From Dictyostelium discoideum (Eukaryota), in the NCBI GenBank assembly GCA_000004695.1, contig CM000152.2, positions 1,728,001 to 1,792,000 on the forward strand: DNA of 64,000 nt. Reading direction: 5' to 3'. A model generated the notes under the pieces. That model saw only the letters and a program-made list of their open reading frames with translations, was not told the DNA's origin and searched no databases. Of the stretch, positions 7,478 to 18,597 are shown one piece after another. The number at the start of each line of letters is the position of its first letter. Within the stretch, counting starts at the first letter, position 1. A program made the position numbers and the translations under genes.

Positions 7478-8319
7478 TTGAAATAAATTCGAAAAATAAT
7501 AGTTTTCCAAGTGGTTTTTTTGATAATCCAGAAGAAGAAAAAAAATCAATTATAAACGATGATTCAGATTTAGAGGTTAATGATAAATTACCAAAAGGAT
7601 TCTTTGATAATGATAGTATAAGGAAGAATGAAGATATTGATAAAGAAGAAATCGATGAAATAACAGAAGAGGAATTAAAGTAAGTTTTGTTTCAAATAAA
7701 AATTAAATTTTGTTTTGAATTTAATTAATTAATAAAATTGGTTGATATAGTACTAATGCAAAAAAAAAAAAAAATAAATAAATAAAATAAAAATAAATTA
7801 ATTATTAAAATATTTACTAGTAAACAACTTGAACAATATAATAATAATATTATTGATTCCACAACTACAACTATTGTTGAAAATGAAAATGATTATATTA
7901 TTAATAACGATAACAATAATAATAATAATAATAATAATATTAATAATATTGAAGAGGTAGATGATAAAAATAGTTATAAAGAAGAAAATGTTAATAGTAA
8001 TAAAGAACAACAACAACAAGAACAAGAACAAAAGGTAGAAAAAGAAGAAAACCTAATAAAGAAAGTTGATAAAAAAATAAATGAAAATGTTTTAATTGGA
8101 CGAGTTTTGAATAATTTTGAAAAAAAGGTTTTAGAATCAAAAATTGATGAACTTGAAAATAAGAGAAAAGATTTGAAATTAATGATTCATTCAAAAAATA
8201 ATATTAATGAAAAGGAGAACAAAAAAGAAGAAAGTGATGACGATGGTGATGATGATTTTAATTTCGATGAAGATGTCCAAATGTTGGACACTAGATCAAT
8301 ATTTCAAAAAAAGAAATAA
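6898..8319 (+). CDS. ZNF830-like C2H2 zinc-finger coiled-coil protein; exons 6898..7679 and 7821..8319 (short unspliced form would stop at 7683)
   Basis: The N-terminal block FAKYNSQKQLLCSLCEAKVLSDSMWKAHCNSKKHKE matches the ZNF830 single C2H2 finger region. A poly-Q tract is encoded by (CAA)n. The stop TAA at 7681 overlaps a consensus GTAAGT donor starting at 7680. A 141-nt AT-rich intron ends ...TTTACTAG at 7820. The downstream sequence is open in the required frame (phase 2) through 8319, encoding a K/E-rich coiled-coil tail. Confidence 0.55.
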
Positions 8320-8770
8320 AATTGTAAATAATTTCTCTAAACTTTCATATTTTTTTATTATTTATTTTATTTTATTTTATTTTTGTTTTGGATTACTCAA
8401 AATTAAAAAAAATTTTAAAAGGTTTTAATCAATATAATATGGAAATAAATTAATCTTACTTTTTTTTTTTTTAATTTTTTTTTTTATCATTTTCATCTAT
8501 AGTTTTAAAGTTTTACATTGTTAAATATATAAATTTATTTATTTCTTTTTTATTATTATTTTTTTATTTTTCTGGTGGTTACTTTTTTTGGCCTTCTCGG
8601 TGTTGGTATTTATTTTAAAAATCTTGGTTGGTTAATTTCTATCATAAATTAAATAATTTTAAAAATAGGTTTTATAGGGTTATCTTTGTCTAATTAATAT
8701 CTAGATAAAATGGGGTGTTATTGTTATGGTTTCAATTCCAAAAAATAATATTAAAAAAAATATGGACATT

Positions 8771-8870
8771 NNNNNNNNNNNNNNNNNNNNNNNNNNNNNN
8801 NNNNNNNNNNNNNNNNNNNNNNNNNNNNNNNNNNNNNNNNNNNNNNNNNNNNNNNNNNNNNNNNNNNNNN
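8771..8870. other. Assembly gap (run of 100 N)
   Basis: Literal N characters are present. Confidence 0.99.
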
Positions 8871-9809
8871 TATGATGAAGATGGTTATGATGAAAATGGT
8901 TATGATAAATATGGTTATTTTTTATGTAAAAAAAACATCTATGATGAAAATGGCTATGATCAATATGGCTATAATGAATATGGTTATGATAAAGATGGTT
9001 ATGATGAAGATGGTTATGATGAAGAGGGTTATGATGAAGATGGTTATGATAAAGCTGGTTATGATAAATGTGGTTATAATGATGATGGTTATCATCAAGA
9101 TGGTTATAATGCATTAGGTTATTATGAAGATGGTTATAATATAAATGGTTATAATGAAGATGGTTATGATAAATATGGTTATAATGAAGATGGTTATGAT
9201 GAAGATGGTTATAATGAAGAGGGTTATGATAAAGATGGTTATCATATATATGGTTATAACAAATATGGTTATAATAAATATGGTTATGATAAATATGGTT
9301 ATGATAAAGATGGTTATGATAAAGACGGTTACGATGAAGATGATTATGATAAAAATGGTTATAATCCATATGGTTATGATAAAGATGGTTTTAATAAAAA
9401 TGGTTATAATAGAGATGGGGTTTATATAAAAAAAAAAAAACTTAACAAAATCACTAAAAAAAGCAAATTAGTTTTGAAATCATTAATTCCATATAAAGGT
9501 ATTCTTGCAAATAATTTAACAGATTTTAAATCAACTGAAAATGATTTCTTTTTAAATGTAGTGTCTCTTTTGTCACGTGAACGCCATATTACATTTATAT
9601 CTAGTGGTAACTTTGACAACAATTTCAACAATTGTTTGAAAATATCGCCGGAATTCTCAAAATGGAATAGTAATAAAGGTGAGGTAGAAATAAGTTCCTT
9701 TCCAACTTATGCTATAGATACAAAGGGTTCTAGAAGACTGACCTTTTATTTTTTTTCAATGAATAGTAAGTCTTTTTTATTAATTATAATTAACAATATT
9801 TTAAAATAA
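8871..9809 (+). CDS. Hexapeptide-repeat protein (about 30 tandem G-Y-D/N-x-x-G units) with a non-repetitive C-terminal tail; 5' end lost in the assembly gap
   Basis: Plus-strand frame is open from the gap through 9809. An 18-nt unit (ggttatgat gaa/aaa gatggt) is repeated in tandem from 8871 to about 9420, giving GYDEDGYDKDGY... Codons follow Dictyostelium usage (gat, ggt, tat, gaa). The minus strand is also open (HNHLYHNH), so strand assignment rests on ORF length and the unique tail. Confidence 0.4.
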   Translation, partial: YDEDGYDENGYDKYGYFLCKKNIYDENGYDQYGYNEYGYDKDGYDEDGYDEEGYDEDGYDKAGYDKCGYNDDGYHQDGYNALGYYEDGYNINGYNEDGYDKYGYNEDGYDEDGYNEEGYDKDGYHIYGYNKYGYNKYGYDKYGYDKDGYDKDGYDEDDYDKNGYNPYGYDKDGFNKNGYNRDGVYIKKKKLNKITKKSKLVLKSLIPYKGILANNLTDFKSTENDFFLNVVSLLSRERHITFISSGNFDNNFNNCLKISPEFSKWNSNKGEVEISSFPTYAIDTKGSRRLTFYFFSMNSKSFLLIIINNILK

Positions 9810-9837
9810 CCCCACTTGGTACTAATATAAATTAAAC

Positions 9838-9981
<144 letters not shown>

Positions 9982-10399
9982 CCAATAAAAGTCCAAACAT
10001 AATCATTATTTTAGAATTTAAATTTTTTCATAAGACTAATTCAATTTTCAGTTATTTTCTTGACGTAAAAAAAAGACCAACACTAATTACATTGATTTCT
10101 TTGAATCTGCCAAAGATCAAATATTCACAATGACTCAGAGAATTCTAGATGTATCAAAAAGTGTTGACAAAGAATATCAAATAATTAATTATCTCATATT
10201 TGGATATAAAGATATTTCAAAATTAAAAACTAGACCCCAAAGGATTGCTGATTTTGGTTTTGATATTTATTTAATTGATGCTGTTACTAAGGAATCAACG
10301 AAAATTCATAATTAAACAAAAATAAATATCCACTCCATGAAGGTCAAAAACAATAACAACAAGAGAATTAAAAAATAAAATAAAATAATAAAATTAAAA

Positions 10400-10502
<103 letters not shown>

Positions 10503-10529
10503 ATAAAACTATCAATTACAATATCCATT

Positions 10530-10701
<172 letters not shown>

Positions 10702-10753
10702 ATAAAAAGTTACAGGAATAATTTATTTAAACTATTGTCTGAATTATGGGTCG

Positions 10754-12047: not shown

Positions 12048-13532
12048 ATGAAAGTTTTATCTGCCTTATGCGTTTTATTAGTCAGTGTTGCCACTGCCAA
12101 ACAACAATTATCCGAAGTTGAATACAGAAATGCTTTCACCAATTGGATGATTGCTCACCAAAGACATTATTCATCAGAAGAGTTCAATGGTCGTTACAAT
12201 ATCTTCAAAGCCAATATGGATTACGTCAATGAATGGAATACCAAAGGTAGTGAAACCGTTTTAGGTTTAAATGTCTTTGCTGATATCAGCAATGAAGAAT
12301 ACAGAGCCACCTATTTAGGTACCCCATTCGATGCTTCATCCCTCGAAATGACCGAATCCGATAAAATCTTCGATGCTTCCGCTCAAGTCGATTGGAGAAC
12401 TCAAGGTGCTGTCACCCCAATCAAAAATCAAGGTCAATGTGGTGGTTGTTGGTCATTCTCAACTACTGGTGCCACTGAAGGTGCTCAATACCTTGCCAAC
12501 GGTAAAAAGAATTTAGTCTCATTATCCGAACAAAATTTAATCGATTGTTCAGGTTCATACGGTAACAACGGTTGTGAAGGTGGTTTAATGACCTTAGCTT
12601 TCGAATACATCATCAATAACAAAGGTATTGATACTGAAAGCAGCTACCCATACACTGCTGAAGACGGTAAAAAATGTAAATTCAACCCAAAGAATGTTGC
12701 TGCTCAATTATCATCATACGTTAACGTTACCTCTGGTTCAGAATCAGATTTAGCTGCCAAAGTTACTCAAGGTCCAACCTCAGTTGCCATTGATGCATCC
12801 AACCAATCATTCCAATTGTACGTTTCAGGTATCTACAATGAGCCAGCTTGCTCTTCAACTCAATTAGATCACGGTGTCTTAGCTGTTGGTTTCGGTACTG
12901 GTAGTGGTTCATCTGGTTCCCATGGTGGTTCCCAATCACAATCTGCTGGTTCAGATTCACAATCTGCTGGTTCAGAATCATCCCAATCTGAATCCGGTTC
13001 ACAATCACAATCTGAATCCGGTTCACAATCACAATCACAATCTGGTTCTCAATCATTCTCTGGTTCCTTATACTCTGGTTCATACTCTGGTTCCCAATCT
13101 GGTTCCCAATCTGGTAACAGCGGTGCTGCTGTTAAACAAACTGGTGCTGGTTCAGGTTCAGGTTCAGGTTCAGGTTCCGGTTCCGGTTCAGGTTCAGGTT
13201 CAGTCTCAGGTTCAGCTTCAGGTTCCGCCTCAGGTTCCGCCTCAGGTTCATCAAGTGGTAGCAATAGCAACGGTGGTGTTTATCCAACCGCTGGTGACTA
13301 CTGGATCGTTAAAAACTCATGGGGTACCTCATGGGGTATGGATGGTTACATTTTAATGACCAAAGGAAATAACAATCAGTAAGTACATAATATATAAAAT
13401 AATTTATATACATATTTATAATAAAAATAGAAATACTAACTAATTTTTTTTTTTTTTTTTTTTTAAATTTTCCTTTATAGATGCGGTATTGCAACAATGG
13501 CCTCACGTCCAACTGCTGTTGCATCACTTTAA
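12048..13532 (+). CDS. Papain-family cysteine proteinase with Ser/Gly-rich insertion domain (Dictyostelium CP4/CP5/CP7 type; cprD/cprE/cprG family), 460 aa; exons 12048..13378 and 13481..13532
   Basis: Signal peptide [17 protein letters not shown]. Propeptide ERFNIN-like region. Catalytic motifs [11 protein letters not shown] (Cys), [10 protein letters not shown] (His), NSWGTSWG (Asn). A roughly 150-aa GS/SQ-rich insert between the His and Asn is encoded by imperfect tcaggt/tcacaa repeats. A phase-2 GTAAGT donor at 13379 and a 102-nt intron precede the last exon, which encodes the conserved papain C-terminus (Q)[16 protein letters not shown]. Confidence 0.85.
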
Positions 13533-13813
13533 ATTAACGATACATATATATACATATTTATATAATTTTATAATTAATAAAAAATAATACGAAAACATAT
13601 AAAATTTATATGATAAATAAATAAAAAATATTTGTAATATATAAAAATTAATTTTCTTTTAATAAAGTTGTTTTAAGTTCTCTTTTGTAAAATTTGTCTT
13701 TTTAAAAAAATTTTTTTTTAAATAAACGCCAATATCTTTTTTTAAAAAATTATAAATAAATTATTTTATTATTATAATTTTTTTATTTTATTTTATTTTA
13801 TTTTATTTTTTTT

Positions 13814-15031
13814 TTAATTATCTTTAATCATTTTTAAAATTTTAAAAAATATTTTCATGTGTTTCTTATAAAGTATTAAAAAATAATTTAAACAAAACCA
13901 AATTGTTAAACGTGGAATTGTAATTGAAATATAATCATTTAAAAATGAAGGAAATATTGAAAGGAATAAAAGTGAAAAAGATTGAATAAAGAAAACTAAT
14001 GTCCAAGTTTCATAATAATATTTTTTAAAAAATAATTTTAATTTTGAATTATATTTTAAACTTGATAAATTAACTTGTTTTCCTTTGATAATTAATTTCT
14101 TTACAGTTAATGGAATTAATCTATGATCTAATTTTATATATCTTTTATTTTTGAAATCACTAAATTCAATGATTTCAACACCAAATGGAATTGAACCATA
14201 ACAAAGATTTGAAGCAATATATTCTCCATTGAAATGATCAATAATTTTCAATTTCTTAACAGATGATGGTATTACATTCTTTTCAATTCTTGTTTCAAAA
14301 CTACAAAATGAAATTGTTAATTTTCTAACTGATGATGGTATAAATCCTGGAATTAATTGCGGTTGAAAATATTTTGGACCCAATACAAGTTTTGTAACTG
14401 ATGATGGTATAAATCCAACTAATAAATTAATATTAAAACAACCATCGATAATTAAGGTTTTAATTGATTTTGGTATATCATTAATAGTTAAATCCATTCT
14501 ATTGAAAAAATTGAATAGTTTTAATTTGGTCACAGTTTGTGGAATTGTATGTGGTTTATTAAAAATACCACCATATTCAATGGATGTTACAGATGGTGGT
14601 AAAAATTCAAATGATTGATTGAAATGATATCCAAATCTTAAAGTTTCGCATGTTGGTGGAATTACACCTTTATCAATTTTAAAATTAAAAAATTGACCAA
14701 CATAAATTGTCTTTACTTTTGGTGGTAATGATCCAATTATCAATGGATATGAAAATACATTACTCAACTTTAATGACCTTACTGAATGTGGTATTGCTCC
14801 AACTGGTATCGATGAATTCTTTAAAAATTTACACTTCTTTATATAATATGAATTCTCTAAACCATTCAATTTGCTACAATCTTCAAAAACTTTAATTTTA
14901 TTCATTGAATATTTTTTAATTTGATGAAAAATTCTAAATCTTAAAAATTTATTTCTCCAAACTTTAAAAAATAATATTTCATTTAAATTATTATTATCAA
15001 TTATTAAATTAATTTTATTATTATTATTCAT
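13814..15031 (-). CDS. FNIP-repeat family protein (Dictyostelium FNIP repeats), 405 aa as a single ORF
   Basis: N-terminus MNNNN...LFFKVWRNKFLRFRIF is typical of FNIP-repeat proteins. Multiple IP(x)SV(T/R)xLxF/FN(Q)xxxxxIP repeat units appear through the body. The hydrophobic C-terminal approximately 70 aa may be 3' read-through or an unrecognised intron. Confidence 0.6.
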   Translation of the reverse strand: MNNNNKINLIIDNNNLNEILFFKVWRNKFLRFRIFHQIKKYSMNKIKVFEDCSKLNGLENSYYIKKCKFLKNSSIPVGAIPHSVRSLKLSNVFSYPLIIGSLPPKVKTIYVGQFFNFKIDKGVIPPTCETLRFGYHFNQSFEFLPPSVTSIEYGGIFNKPHTIPQTVTKLKLFNFFNRMDLTINDIPKSIKTLIIDGCFNINLLVGFIPSSVTKLVLGPKYFQPQLIPGFIPSSVRKLTISFCSFETRIEKNVIPSSVKKLKIIDHFNGEYIASNLCYGSIPFGVEIIEFSDFKNKRYIKLDHRLIPLTVKKLIIKGKQVNLSSLKYNSKLKLFFKKYYYETWTLVFFIQSFSLLFLSIFPSFLNDYISITIPRLTIWFCLNYFLILYKKHMKIFFKILKMIKDN

Positions 15032-15965
15032 TTTTTTTTTTTTTTTTTCTTTTTATTTGAATTAAAATTTTCAATATGATTATTTCATATTCCTTTATTT
15101 AACAATCATATATAATAAAAATAAAAATAAATAAAAAAAAAATAATAATCAAAAAAAAAAAAAAAAAATTATAAAAAAAAGAAAAAAAAAAAAAAAAAGA
15201 AATTTTTTTGTGAATAGGGTTAAAAAAAATTTTTTTTTACCCCCTGCAACTGTATTTTTTTTATTTTTTTCTTTATTTTAAAAAAAAAAAAAAATACAAT
15301 CAAAGTATTGTTTCTATATCTAGTTTAGTGGGGGTTAAATTTTAATCTTAAATAACTTTTTTTTTTTTTTTTTAAAAAATAGGGTTTATGGTTAAAAAAA
15401 AAAAAATTAATCCATAAATAGGCTAACAATATTTTAAGTTAAATTACCACCATTCTGTGGGAAAGCCAAATGTGATGAAAAATGTACAATAAAACCATTG
15501 ACATAATATAATCATGTCAAATAATTACCATGGTAAAAACATAAAATAATAAAATCAATTTTAATATAGCATTATTTTATTTTTTAAAACATTAATTATT
15601 TTTTTTAATTCTTAAAAAGTTATTAAAAAAACATTTAAAATAAAGTAATATAAAAGAAGTTGGATAAAAAAAAATTAAAGTAAATTATTAAAATGTTAAA
15701 TTAATAAATATAATAAATGTTAAATTAATAAATATAATAAAATTATTAAATTTCCAAACTAATTTTTCAATGTTTTTTGATTATCACAGCCAGAGGTAAT
15801 TCAATTTCAAATCTCTTTCAATTTAAATAAAAATATTAAATAGATTTCTTTATAGTTTTAAAAATGTTTATTATTTATTTCTTTTCTTTCCTTTTCTTTT
15901 CTTTATTTAATTAATAATTAACTCTAATAAATATTAAGTAATAGTAGTTTTCTTATTATTATTAT

Positions 15966-16003
<38 letters not shown>

Positions 16004-16008
<5 letters not shown>

Positions 16009-18597
16009 CAAAGTTTAATCTTAATTTTAAAAGATATTTAATTCTACATTGAGAATTATTATAGATTACATATTCATTGGGAGTAAAAAATGTTACAATA
16101 CTACCAGTTTCAATGATGGGACCTTTTAATACTGAAGATGGTATAAATTCATCTTTATCTTGATAGCAACCATTCAATTGGTCATAGAGAGCTGGTTGTC
16201 TTTTACCCAAGGCTTTTGTACTTAGATATCCTAATTGTGGTTCCTCCATGTAGGTATCATGGTATAATGCGGCGCTATTACCCAAAGCAACGTCACAAAT
16301 GGCGATAATAGCGGTTGGATTCTCTTTTGTGGCACCAGTGTATAAACCTGATAAAGAAATGCAATCAGCTAGATAGACACCTTTACCAAGACGATAGCCA
16401 GATTTTGGAGATAATGGTGAGGCGATCTTTAAACCATTTGGAAGAATACTACACCAAGATTGAATTCTACTACCATGGAATAATAACATTCTATTGTGAT
16501 TTGATTCCCATTGAGAAAATTGATCATCACCAATTCTATCAACCTTGAAAACATCCAATACATCGATACTATAACCCAAACTTGGATCAACGGTAGAAAG
16601 TGCAAACTCTTCAATATTACGAAAGAGAAAAGAATCTCTTTCCAATGGTTTAATATCGGCCTTTAAGAGATTATAGTTGTCGTCGGTTGAATTACCACTG
16701 GTGGATGTACTTAATCTTTTCAATTGATTTACGACCTCTATTTCACTTAATGCATCTACCAATCTAATACATTTGACCAAGAGTTCTTTATTATCGATTG
16801 GTGGTATTTTACTCATGAGACCACCCTCGAAACGATGTGGAATATGTGTATAGAATTTTGAAGACTCTGCCATAATTTCACTTTTAATATTGTGTTGGGC
16901 AGTTGGTGACAATGGTTGTAATGGTGATTGTTTTTCAATGGTTTCTAAAAGCTCTTGAATTCTATTCAATACTTCATAGGCTTTATTAATTTGATTCTGT
17001 GATAACTTTCCCAATGGCATCTTTTGTACATCAAATTGAAGTGATGTTAATGATTTCTTCATTAATTCTGAATCAAATAATGTATTTACAAGTGATTGAA
17101 CTGGTTGTAATAATTTTGATGGTTTTGTATTAACTGGTGCAACAATTGGTGCTTCTACTTCATTATCACCACCACTACTAAATTCACCAACATTCTCTTC
17201 TAAATCGATGATTGCATATTTACCATTTTGTTTCTTATATTTACCTCTATCATTCCATTCAATACCAGTTTTATCAGTGAATCTTTCACCAAATTCTTTT
17301 AATGCTTTGTTTAATGATGTATGACTATGTTGCATTGTACCGCCATTACTAACACCAATACGACCCCATTTACAATATACCCAATACGATGTATCACCAG
17401 TTTTAATAATTTGTAAAATATAATATGAATTATTATTATGAATTAAATCAGTTAAATTCATTAAAACATTATATGCAACATAACCATAAACATCATCTTC
17501 TAATACTAAAATTTCACCTTTATTTGCATTACTAAATGATGGATCAACTTTTAATAATGTTGAATTTTTTTTAATTGGTGATTTTTTATAAAAGAAACTA
17601 TTATTATCATCATCATTATTATTATTATTATTATTATTACTACCATTATCTTTTGAATCTGAAATTGATAAAGCTGAAAATGTTGGAATTTCTGTTTCTT
17701 TAGTACTATTTATACCTTCTGTTTCTTTATATTCTAATACTTCATATGGATGAATTTGTGAAAATGTATAACCTTTTTGAGTAAAATAAAAAAATTAATT
17801 AGTATTAAATAAATAATTATTATTATTATTAAAAAAAAAAAAAAAAAAACAAACCTTTAAAGAAAGAAGTTTTTGGCATTAATTCCTTTGGAATTATGAA
17901 ACGATATCTTTTAACCTCTTGACCATGCCAAGTACAACGAGAAAATGAACTTGAGAAACCCCTACAATAATAATTTTTACCATCATATAAAACAGTTAAA
18001 CCATTACAAGATGGACATGGACCAATACGACCATATGATAAACCATCGGCCAAAAAGTGAAGATAATAACTTGGTGATAATGAATCCAATTTTGGATAAA
18101 ATTCTAAAAATAATTTTTTAATAATTGCTGGTTTTAATTCACTAATTAAAATATCTTTAATTCTCCAAACTTCATTATAATACTAAAAATAAAAAATTTT
18201 TAAAAAAAAAAAAAAAAAAAAAAAATTTAGTATATTAATTATTTTTGAAAATTAAAATAAAAAAAAAAAAAATACATACAGTTGATAAAGCTAAATTTAA
18301 TCCATCATCAGTTTGACCTAAAATTTTTCTAATTTTTAATTGATCATCCCATCTTAATAATTCATAATGCTTTAATTGATTAATATAAAAGATTTTTAAC
18401 TTTGGGAAGTCCATACAACTTAAATGGTAATATTTGACATCGTAACCATCGAAAACACGTGACGGTGTCTCTGTTCCAACTCTAATTGTATCCATTCCAA
18501 TTGTTCCTTTACATTTCTTGCAAGATGATCTGGCTGATTTTGAATATTCGACTGTTTGTCTTAACCCTTCATGTGATGTAAATTTCTCTTTTTCCAT
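16004..18597 (-). CDS. Poly(ADP-ribose) polymerase with N-terminal PARP-type zinc finger, WGR, regulatory and catalytic domains, 804 aa; exons (minus) 18597..18280, 18182..17855, 17772..16004
   Basis: Exon 1 encodes the zf-PARP motif (EYSKSARSSCKKCKGTI...FDG...YYHLSC). Donor GTATGT, 97-nt intron. Exon 2 ends in phase 1 before GTTTGT, followed by an 82-nt intron. Exon 3 encodes the WGR region (YILQIIKTGDTSYWVYCKWGRIGV) and the catalytic domain with the H-Y-E triad (LLFHGSR, GKGVYLAD, NEYVIY). Confidence 0.8.

Follow-up and report, generated by a model that had tools for sequence, protein, structure and literature searches.

A predicted fast-evolving orphan gene with a length-variable pentapeptide array on chromosome 3 of Dictyostelium discoideum AX4

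Sequence comparisons among five strains support the view that a tandem-repeat locus on chromosome 3 of Dictyostelium discoideum AX4 is probably a single-copy, dispensable, and fast-evolving orphan protein-coding gene. The locus occupies plus-strand positions 8762-9809 of the window, by which we mean the whole 64,000-nucleotide stretch analyzed (assembly GCA_000004695.1, contig CM000152.2, positions 1,728,001 to 1,792,000), and is flanked by a poly-Q/poly-N C2H2-like gene and by DDB_G0279197. Its predicted product joins an acidic, tyrosine-rich pentapeptide array, which would be a slippage-prone spacer or scaffold, to a basic tail. The AX4 reference, in which a gap of 100 N cuts the 5′ part of the gene, cannot model it properly and annotates only the downstream 61-amino-acid (aa) ORF DDB_G0279197; newer assemblies call the array gene a hypothetical protein. 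Exact look-ups of the 378-aa, 416-aa, and 312-aa AX4 models and of two wild-strain proteins found no entry in the protein collection and no AX4 gene identifier. The finding itself is of modest interest, and its chief interest lies in the wider class of repeats and in the hypervariability of the locus.

The array was delimited by Tandem Repeats Finder at positions 8871-9418 (period 15 nucleotides [nt], 36.9 copies, 79% matches, score 515), and on the plus strand it translates as GYDEDGYDKDGY... and passes into a unique tail with TAA 9807-9809 as its stop. Each unit encodes five residues, G-Y-[D/N]-x-x, or Y-[D/N]-x-x-G when read in 15-nt steps, with the consensus Y-D-E/K-D-G. An earlier note on this DNA had recognized a tandem in-frame repeat here, and the array is real; the 18-nt hexapeptide unit that it described is not, the shared glycine having been counted twice. 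It had also correctly placed the array directly against an assembly gap, which at 8771-8870 is exactly 100 N long and is the sole run of N in the window. An 8-codon nonrepeat linker, YFLCKKNI (8916-8939), splits the array.

The gap was closed with assembly GCA_054883475.1, whose chromosome CM142509.1 was reached through the FNIP protein DDB_G0279203, which is also encoded there; in the window its gene occupies 13814-15031, and an exact look-up of the protein gave this AX4 identity. This gap-free AX4 sequence (locus L005) is 100% identical to the window at 8001-8770 and 8871-10315, and in place of the 100-N placeholder it holds 189 nt, or 63 codons in frame, encoding KKKVI, nine units, the linker NYWCKKVI, and one further unit. 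The gap is not a large expansion of undetermined size; it is 189 nt. A near-perfect 60-nt duplication (a single difference) lies inside the missing piece and could plausibly explain why assembly failed here, in agreement with the early suspicion that the repeat had been hard to assemble. With the gap closed, the 5′ end lies at ATG 8762-8764 and the units number 45 in all; the earlier note had taken both to be unknown. The start codon and first codons (ATGGACATT, M-D-I; 8762-8770, plus strand) match the annotated start in L005 (16346, minus strand) and ATGGGCATT in D. cf. discoideum.

In the gap-closed sequence, an open reading frame (ORF) of 378 codons runs from this ATG through MDIKKKVI and 9 units, NYWCKKVI and 4 units, YFLCKKNI and 32 units, and then the tail. 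Each of the three blocks (9, 4, and 32 units) is opened by KK[V/N]IYD. On the plus strand of the window, the last 3 units of block 2 occupy 8871-8915; the linker that follows, an in-frame copy of the N-terminal cap KKKVI, opens block 3, whose 32 consecutive 15-nt units fill 8940-9419. Both linkers resemble the cap, so the 5′ part of the ORF has seemingly been duplicated in frame twice. Glycine holds its place in 44 of the 45 units, tyrosine or phenylalanine in all 45, and aspartate or asparagine in 42. The array part is 22% Tyr, 21% Asp, and 18% Gly, with a net charge of about -44 and an isoelectric point (pI) of 4.05. The tail comprises about 110 to 130 unique residues (129 unique codons to the AX4 stop) and is basic; its conserved-frame portion (VYIKKKKLNK...GSRR, pI ∼10) spans 9420-9737 on the plus strand and is open in four alleles.

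Of the six frames of the unit GGTTATGATGAAGAT, four are free of stops, and open frames within the array consequently carry little weight. The claim that both strands are open holds to that extent, and the minus-strand H-N-H-L-Y frame, 179 codons long in the gap-closed sequence, is confined to the array and broken at the linkers. Only the plus-strand G-Y-D frame leads from the ATG across the cap and the two linkers into 129 unique codons. The length of every block is an exact multiple of five residues. Gly and Tyr codons are nearly invariant, and most of the variation falls on the first codon positions of residues 2 to 4. For 40 to 90 random substitutions on a consensus array, 3.2 to 6.6 stops are expected and 0 were observed (probability of none, 0.035 to 0.002). 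The tail has taken at least 87 substitutions with 0 stops, at a rate of ∼8% of possible changes giving a stop (P ∼0.001). All internal indels between the four alleles are in frame, including the single one in the tail domain (3 nt); those in the flanks measure 1, 2, 7, 8, 9, 10, 22, 77, and 83 nt. The plus strand is the predicted coding strand, as had been proposed.

Alleles were compared among AX4 (L005), ACTFIW (L006), ACTFIR (L007), and ACTFIY (L001), and a fifth strain, ACTFIZ (L008), is without the gene; L006, L007, and L008 were located through the FNIP neighbor. The three D. discoideum alleles are intact, at 378 aa in AX4, 374 aa in ACTFIW, and 256 aa in ACTFIR, the last with ∼26 units and no internal linkers. 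The orthologue in D. cf. discoideum ACTFIY, P0007, is syntenic, with the same neighbors (zf-CCCH, P5-ATPase, FNIP, and PARP), and has a TAA at codon 34. The annotation of P0007 skips this in-frame TAA by way of a 21-nt "intron" (L001 10080-10103), which is an annotation artifact hiding a probable pseudogene. D. cf. discoideum ACTFIZ has no trace of array or tail; its flanks are parted by ∼2.4 kb of unrelated sequence with a 99-aa gene call (L008 ∼12320-16320, locus coordinates). In the sister species the gene appears to have been put out of action or lost, and a C-terminal frameshift described below suggests early damage to the AX4 allele.

Array length differs between strains from about 26 to 52 units, and array net charge differs from -18 to -84. 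Each allele has its own set of runs of identical units (GYDIN in ACTFIR; GYDEY and GYDKY in ACTFIY; GYDED and GYDEY in ACTFIW), a signature of local unit amplification. The linker that opens block 3 is also present in ACTFIW (YFLCKKAI) and is absent from ACTFIR and ACTFIY. The array changes as entire 15-nt units, and also longer in-frame segments, are added or removed. Slippage would be the mechanism by which the 15-nt array gains and loses units, its length apparently being tolerated by the protein.

The ratio of nonsynonymous to synonymous divergence (dN/dS, or omega) in a 107-codon stretch of the tail is 0.58 to 1.14, with dN of 0.08 to 0.21, although a ratio near 1 would also fit a decaying allele. 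Neighboring genes in the same genomes give omega values of 0.04 to 0.31, and FNIP has a dN of 0.007 to 0.018. The residues therefore appear barely constrained while the frame seems to be kept open by selection, and the two together point to a gene that is dispensable and fast evolving. The pattern is compatible with diversifying selection as well as with relaxed selection acting on a gene that is not essential.

Several observations weigh against an intact, dispensable gene, and we set them out here beginning with the 3′ end. Compared with ACTFIW and ACTFIY, AX4 lacks one C at 9738 (AGAAGACCTGACC there and AGAAGACTGACC in AX4, from a nucleotide alignment); this 1-nt deletion shifts the C terminus into LTFYFFSMNSKSFLLIIINNILK followed by TAA 9807-9809, so that 9738-9809 (plus strand) is an AX4-specific frameshifted tail. 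In ACTFIW, ACTFIR, and ACTFIY the protein ends in RRPDLLFFF[N/K]E. The ancestral stop, TAG 9764-9766 on the plus strand, is out of frame in AX4 and overlaps a consensus GTAAGT donor at 9766-9771, making the 3′ structure ambiguous. The ACTFIR annotation splices at this GTAAGT into a further 108 codons ending at the TAA of DDB_G0279197, and the annotation of the AX4-like assembly (L005) reaches the same stop across a 392-nt intron; in both loci (L005 and L007) annotators joined the DDB_G0279197 ORF to the array gene. The downstream frame is open for 125 codons in ACTFIR, longer than chance would readily allow in DNA so rich in A+T, and in AX4 it is broken by two 1-nt indels, at 9738 and near 10066. 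ACTFIW has a 77-78-nt deletion in this frame, and ACTFIY has an 83-nt deletion that disrupts the DDB_G0279197 ORF. Enumeration of splice models for a second exon yielded several possible ones, none of them conserved between AX4 and D. cf. discoideum, and Pfam and PDB searches found no family or solved structure for either version of the tail. At the 5′ end, the intergenic region is 438 nt in AX4 versus 691, 924, and 1122 nt in the three other strains with an allele, and it is rearranged.

The 61-codon ORF annotated as DDB_G0279197 (10130-10315, plus strand; matched by exact look-up) is, in AX4, possibly a 3′ exon remnant or mis-split exon of the repeat gene, or else a spurious model. Nearly all between-strain differences in this ORF alter the amino acid. 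Upstream of the gene, the intergenic region (window 8320-8761) aligns between strains over only its first 80 to 130 nt, and the stretch immediately preceding the AX4 ATG aligns with a D. cf. discoideum site lying ∼900 nt upstream.

The remaining points of this kind concern the protein. The orphan status of the tail rests on the best 150 HMMER matches, a list dominated by repeat matches in which the syntenic orthologue P0007 alone matched through the tail, and on a word-index protein search, queried both with the tail by itself and with a four-allele profile of it, that returned no match and also missed P0007 in its own database. The database search with the unique C terminus recommended in the earlier note thus recovered the sister-species orthologue and nothing else. 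Negatives from the word-index search are unreliable for A+T-rich, low-complexity sequence, since the queries held the exact C terminus of P0007. AlphaFold2 with a 40-sequence alignment gave a predicted local distance difference test score (pLDDT) of 93 to 98 for the first 80 residues of the array, where scarcely any helix or strand was predicted, and this high confidence may be an artifact of the perfect repeat; no solved structure in the PDB matches the array. With an alignment of 2 sequences, the window protein was modeled at a mean pLDDT of 47 with the tail unmodeled, and its Foldseek matches are meaningless. Finally, the spacer or scaffold role is derived from architecture alone.

Taken together, these points could be explained if the gene were a decaying pseudogene in AX4, and perhaps throughout the species complex, formerly a longer two-exon gene whose first exon is accidentally open. 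We regard this as unlikely. Decay would account for the dN/dS of 0.6 to 1.1, for the AX4 1-nt indels that break the long form seen in ACTFIR, for an AX4 5′ intergenic region that is the shortest of those compared and rearranged, and for the premature TAA in ACTFIY and the missing gene in ACTFIZ. However, 256 to 378 codons remain open in the three D. discoideum alleles despite 78% A+T, the substitutions in the tail have produced no stop, the 45 units hold 0 stops where 3 to 7 would be expected, and every internal indel is in frame.

The same rates of change could instead be adaptive. Under diversifying or balancing selection on a conflict or recognition gene, the divergence, the old alleles, and the presence/absence variation would all be products of selection. 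Consistent with this, divergence between ACTFIW and ACTFIR is ∼6-fold that of the neighboring gene, silent sites included (tail dS 0.083 and dN 0.095; FNIP dS 0.013); omega reaches ∼1.1; the tail alternates between invariant blocks and variable positions; and the entire locus is rich in structural variation. However, only four alleles are available, omega in the tail is never clearly above 1, loss or disruption in two strains suggests dispensability, and recognition at the cell surface would need a signal peptide or membrane anchor, neither of which the protein has. We consider this explanation improbable, and a dispensable gene under relaxed constraint remains our preferred reading.

We next consider where the protein would reside. 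Its N terminus, MDIKKKVIYD..., is hydrophilic (mean hydropathy of the first 30 residues, -1.0), and neither a signal peptide nor a hydrophobic segment was found in any allele on hydropathy, no dedicated signal-peptide predictor having been used. No 19-residue window reaches the hydropathy of a membrane helix; the Kyte-Doolittle maximum, 1.19, falls inside the AX4-specific frameshifted tail. Because signal peptide and membrane helix are both lacking by these measures, the protein is most likely soluble and intracellular. These results give no support to the mineral-binding, adhesive, or cell-wall role first suggested for it. The very acidic, Tyr-rich array and the occurrence among bacterial relatives of a lipoprotein signal before the array or an adhesin domain after it (P0266 and P0032) are compatible with a secreted product, but cytoplasmic proteins such as sigma factors, helicases, and exonucleases are numerous among the bacterial relatives, and on hydropathy we found none of the marks of a secreted, cell-wall, or adhesive protein (signal peptide, membrane anchor, or glycosylphosphatidylinositol anchor). 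The companion proposal of a His/Asn-rich protein from the minus strand was rejected, as its 179-codon frame never leaves the array. We judge either version very improbable. Least credible is a noncoding minisatellite that is open in several frames by chance: the stop-free unit frames and the scarcity of synonymous third-position variation would suit it, but it is contradicted by the conserved ATG and a frame held through two linkers and 129 unique codons, by block lengths that are exact multiples of 15 nt with in-frame indels, by variation that spares Gly and Tyr codons, and by the recurrence of the same peptide repeat in thousands of proteins.

That recurrence emerged from an exhaustive HMMER search, which returned 2,961 cluster representatives at E ≤ 1e-3 and 191 at E ≤ 1e-30, mostly bacterial and all matching via the array. 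Tyr/Asp/Gly arrays of this regularity are therefore not unusual, as they had been taken to be. phmmer E values to array relatives reach 1e-169, and the relatives include proteins of Wolbachia, Clostridia, and Elusimicrobiota. Their architectures include a membrane anchor, array, and DUF4145; an array with a HelD/UvrD-type helicase; an array with sigma-70; a lipoprotein signal with an array; and an array with an Lcl_C adhesin domain (P0266 and P0032 being examples of the last two). Among 79 relatives scanned, the partner domains were RNase_T, TrbI, CWB2, reverse transcriptase, DnaJ, VWA, and HNH; four of the 79 carry a TrbI domain (DotG/TrbI type), and two match the DotG repeat region PF25296, at up to E = 8e-26. 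Other array proteins match this region weakly, with relatives scoring 20 to 40 bits on PF25296.

Two groups of relatives are worth recording. In a metagenomic bacterial cluster at 90% identity (P0125 and P0282-P0290), protein lengths run from 1393 to 1553 aa in 20-residue steps, so that array length differs among close bacterial relatives as well. P0002, P0006, P0014, and P0019, from multimegabase contigs, share a C terminus (GSGLKILTPQQMLA.LPI...AGNNS...LYRSK), which suggests a distinct family with the array, possibly eukaryotic or linked to mobile elements.

Searches of curated collections assigned the Dictyostelium protein to no family. The 312-aa window protein had no match by hmmscan against Pfam at E ≤ 10, and the tail domain had none in Pfam, NCBIfam, or PDB. 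Rhs/YD repeats (PF05593 and TIGR01643; a motif of ∼20 residues, GxxxRYxYDxxGRL) were rejected, there being no Pfam or NCBIfam match and a period of 5 residues. An EF-hand-like DxDxDG loop was likewise rejected, because the spacing here is D-x-D-G-Y-D, with Gly directly after the second Asp, and no EF-hand, thrombospondin, or dockerin match was found in Pfam (E ≤ 10). The protein does belong to an operational class, for which there is no curated model, of G-[Y/F]-[D/N]-x-x array proteins. A literature search with the peptide strings and for Dictyostelium pentapeptide repeats found no relevant paper. The array uses codons in the manner typical of Dictyostelium, and independent amplification of a 15-nt unit is accordingly as likely an origin as transfer from bacteria.

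The array may be a regular, turn-rich, acidic spacer or scaffold whose length is widely tolerated, and would then be neither a catalytic nor a specific binding domain. This reading is suggested by the recurrence of Gly, an aromatic residue, and Asp or Asn every five residues and by the many unrelated bacterial partner domains (exonuclease, DotG/TrbI, sigma-70, DUF4145, Lcl_C, CWB2, and others). In the Dictyostelium protein, the acidic, Tyr-rich array would act as a generic spacer.

The results also correct the AX4 reference, giving a gap of 189 nt and a defined start, and DDB_G0279197 may well represent a remnant or mis-split exon. The locus is a hot spot of both structural and sequence variation among D. 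discoideum strains, and the gene could be used to study in-frame repeat expansion, orphan gene decay, and selection on diversity. More broadly, there exists a very large class of Gly-aromatic-Asp/Asn pentapeptide arrays that no curated model covers and no solved structure represents, and which overlaps the repeat region of Legionella DotG.

G+C content is ∼22%, and AAC, AT, and ATA microsatellites are abundant. Downstream, (AAC)50, (AT)48, and (ATA)58 follow in close succession at window positions 9835-9985, 10403-10498, and 10531-10705. The (AAC)50 tract (Tandem Repeats Finder and four-allele alignment), which forms 3′ flank or a putative intron, is far shorter in the other strains. Rfam matches at window positions 8000-10700 were chance matches to an (AT)n tract only. 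The next downstream gene (ORF 12048-13382) has coding repeats at window positions 12926-13250, a 24-nt unit in 5.5 copies and GGTTCA in 17, and an overlapping frame at 12926-13250 gives a dN/dS of ∼2 against D. cf. discoideum.

Among known systems, elastin (VPGVG), flagelliform silk (GPGGX), and pVHL (GxEEx) also have Gly-containing five-residue tandem arrays, which are generally considered to adopt successive turns or to serve as acidic, disordered linkers. Human pVHL was the nearest PDB sequence match, at a nonsignificant E of ∼0.5. There is no sequence relationship to these proteins; their arrays are without the Tyr-Asp core, and the Dictyostelium protein is without a secretion signal. Pentapeptide-repeat proteins of family PF00805 (MfpA/Qnr) likewise have a five-residue period, a fixed Asp/Asn, and an acidic character. 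They fold as a right-handed quadrilateral β-helix, and their acidity underlies DNA mimicry. In the Dictyostelium unit, the central Leu/Phe core residue of these proteins is replaced by the Gly/Tyr pattern; membership was rejected, since no match was found at E ≤ 10 and the consensus is Y-D-E/K-D-G rather than A[D/N]LXX.

The decapeptide/pentapeptide repeat region of the type IVB secretion protein DotG/IcmE (PF25296, "Decapeptide repeat region"; NF033900) resembles the Dictyostelium array in being long, variable in length, and Asp/Asn rich, with Gly every five residues, and its length also differs between strains (PMC6761968). Unlike DotG, the Dictyostelium protein is eukaryotic and has no secretion-system context; the hallmarks of DotG/IcmE, a C-terminal TrbI/VirB10 domain and an N-terminal membrane anchor, were not found in it, and it did not reach the cutoffs of PF25296 or NF033900 (45 bits in Pfam and 750 bits in NCBIfam). 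Likeness between two low-complexity arrays is no proof of common descent. The bacterial and metagenomic G-[Y/F]-[D/N]-x-x proteins have wholly different partner domains, the Dictyostelium tail being limited, among the matches listed, to the D. discoideum complex; they share with it the same five-residue unit and consensus, often with a Lys-rich stretch before the array.

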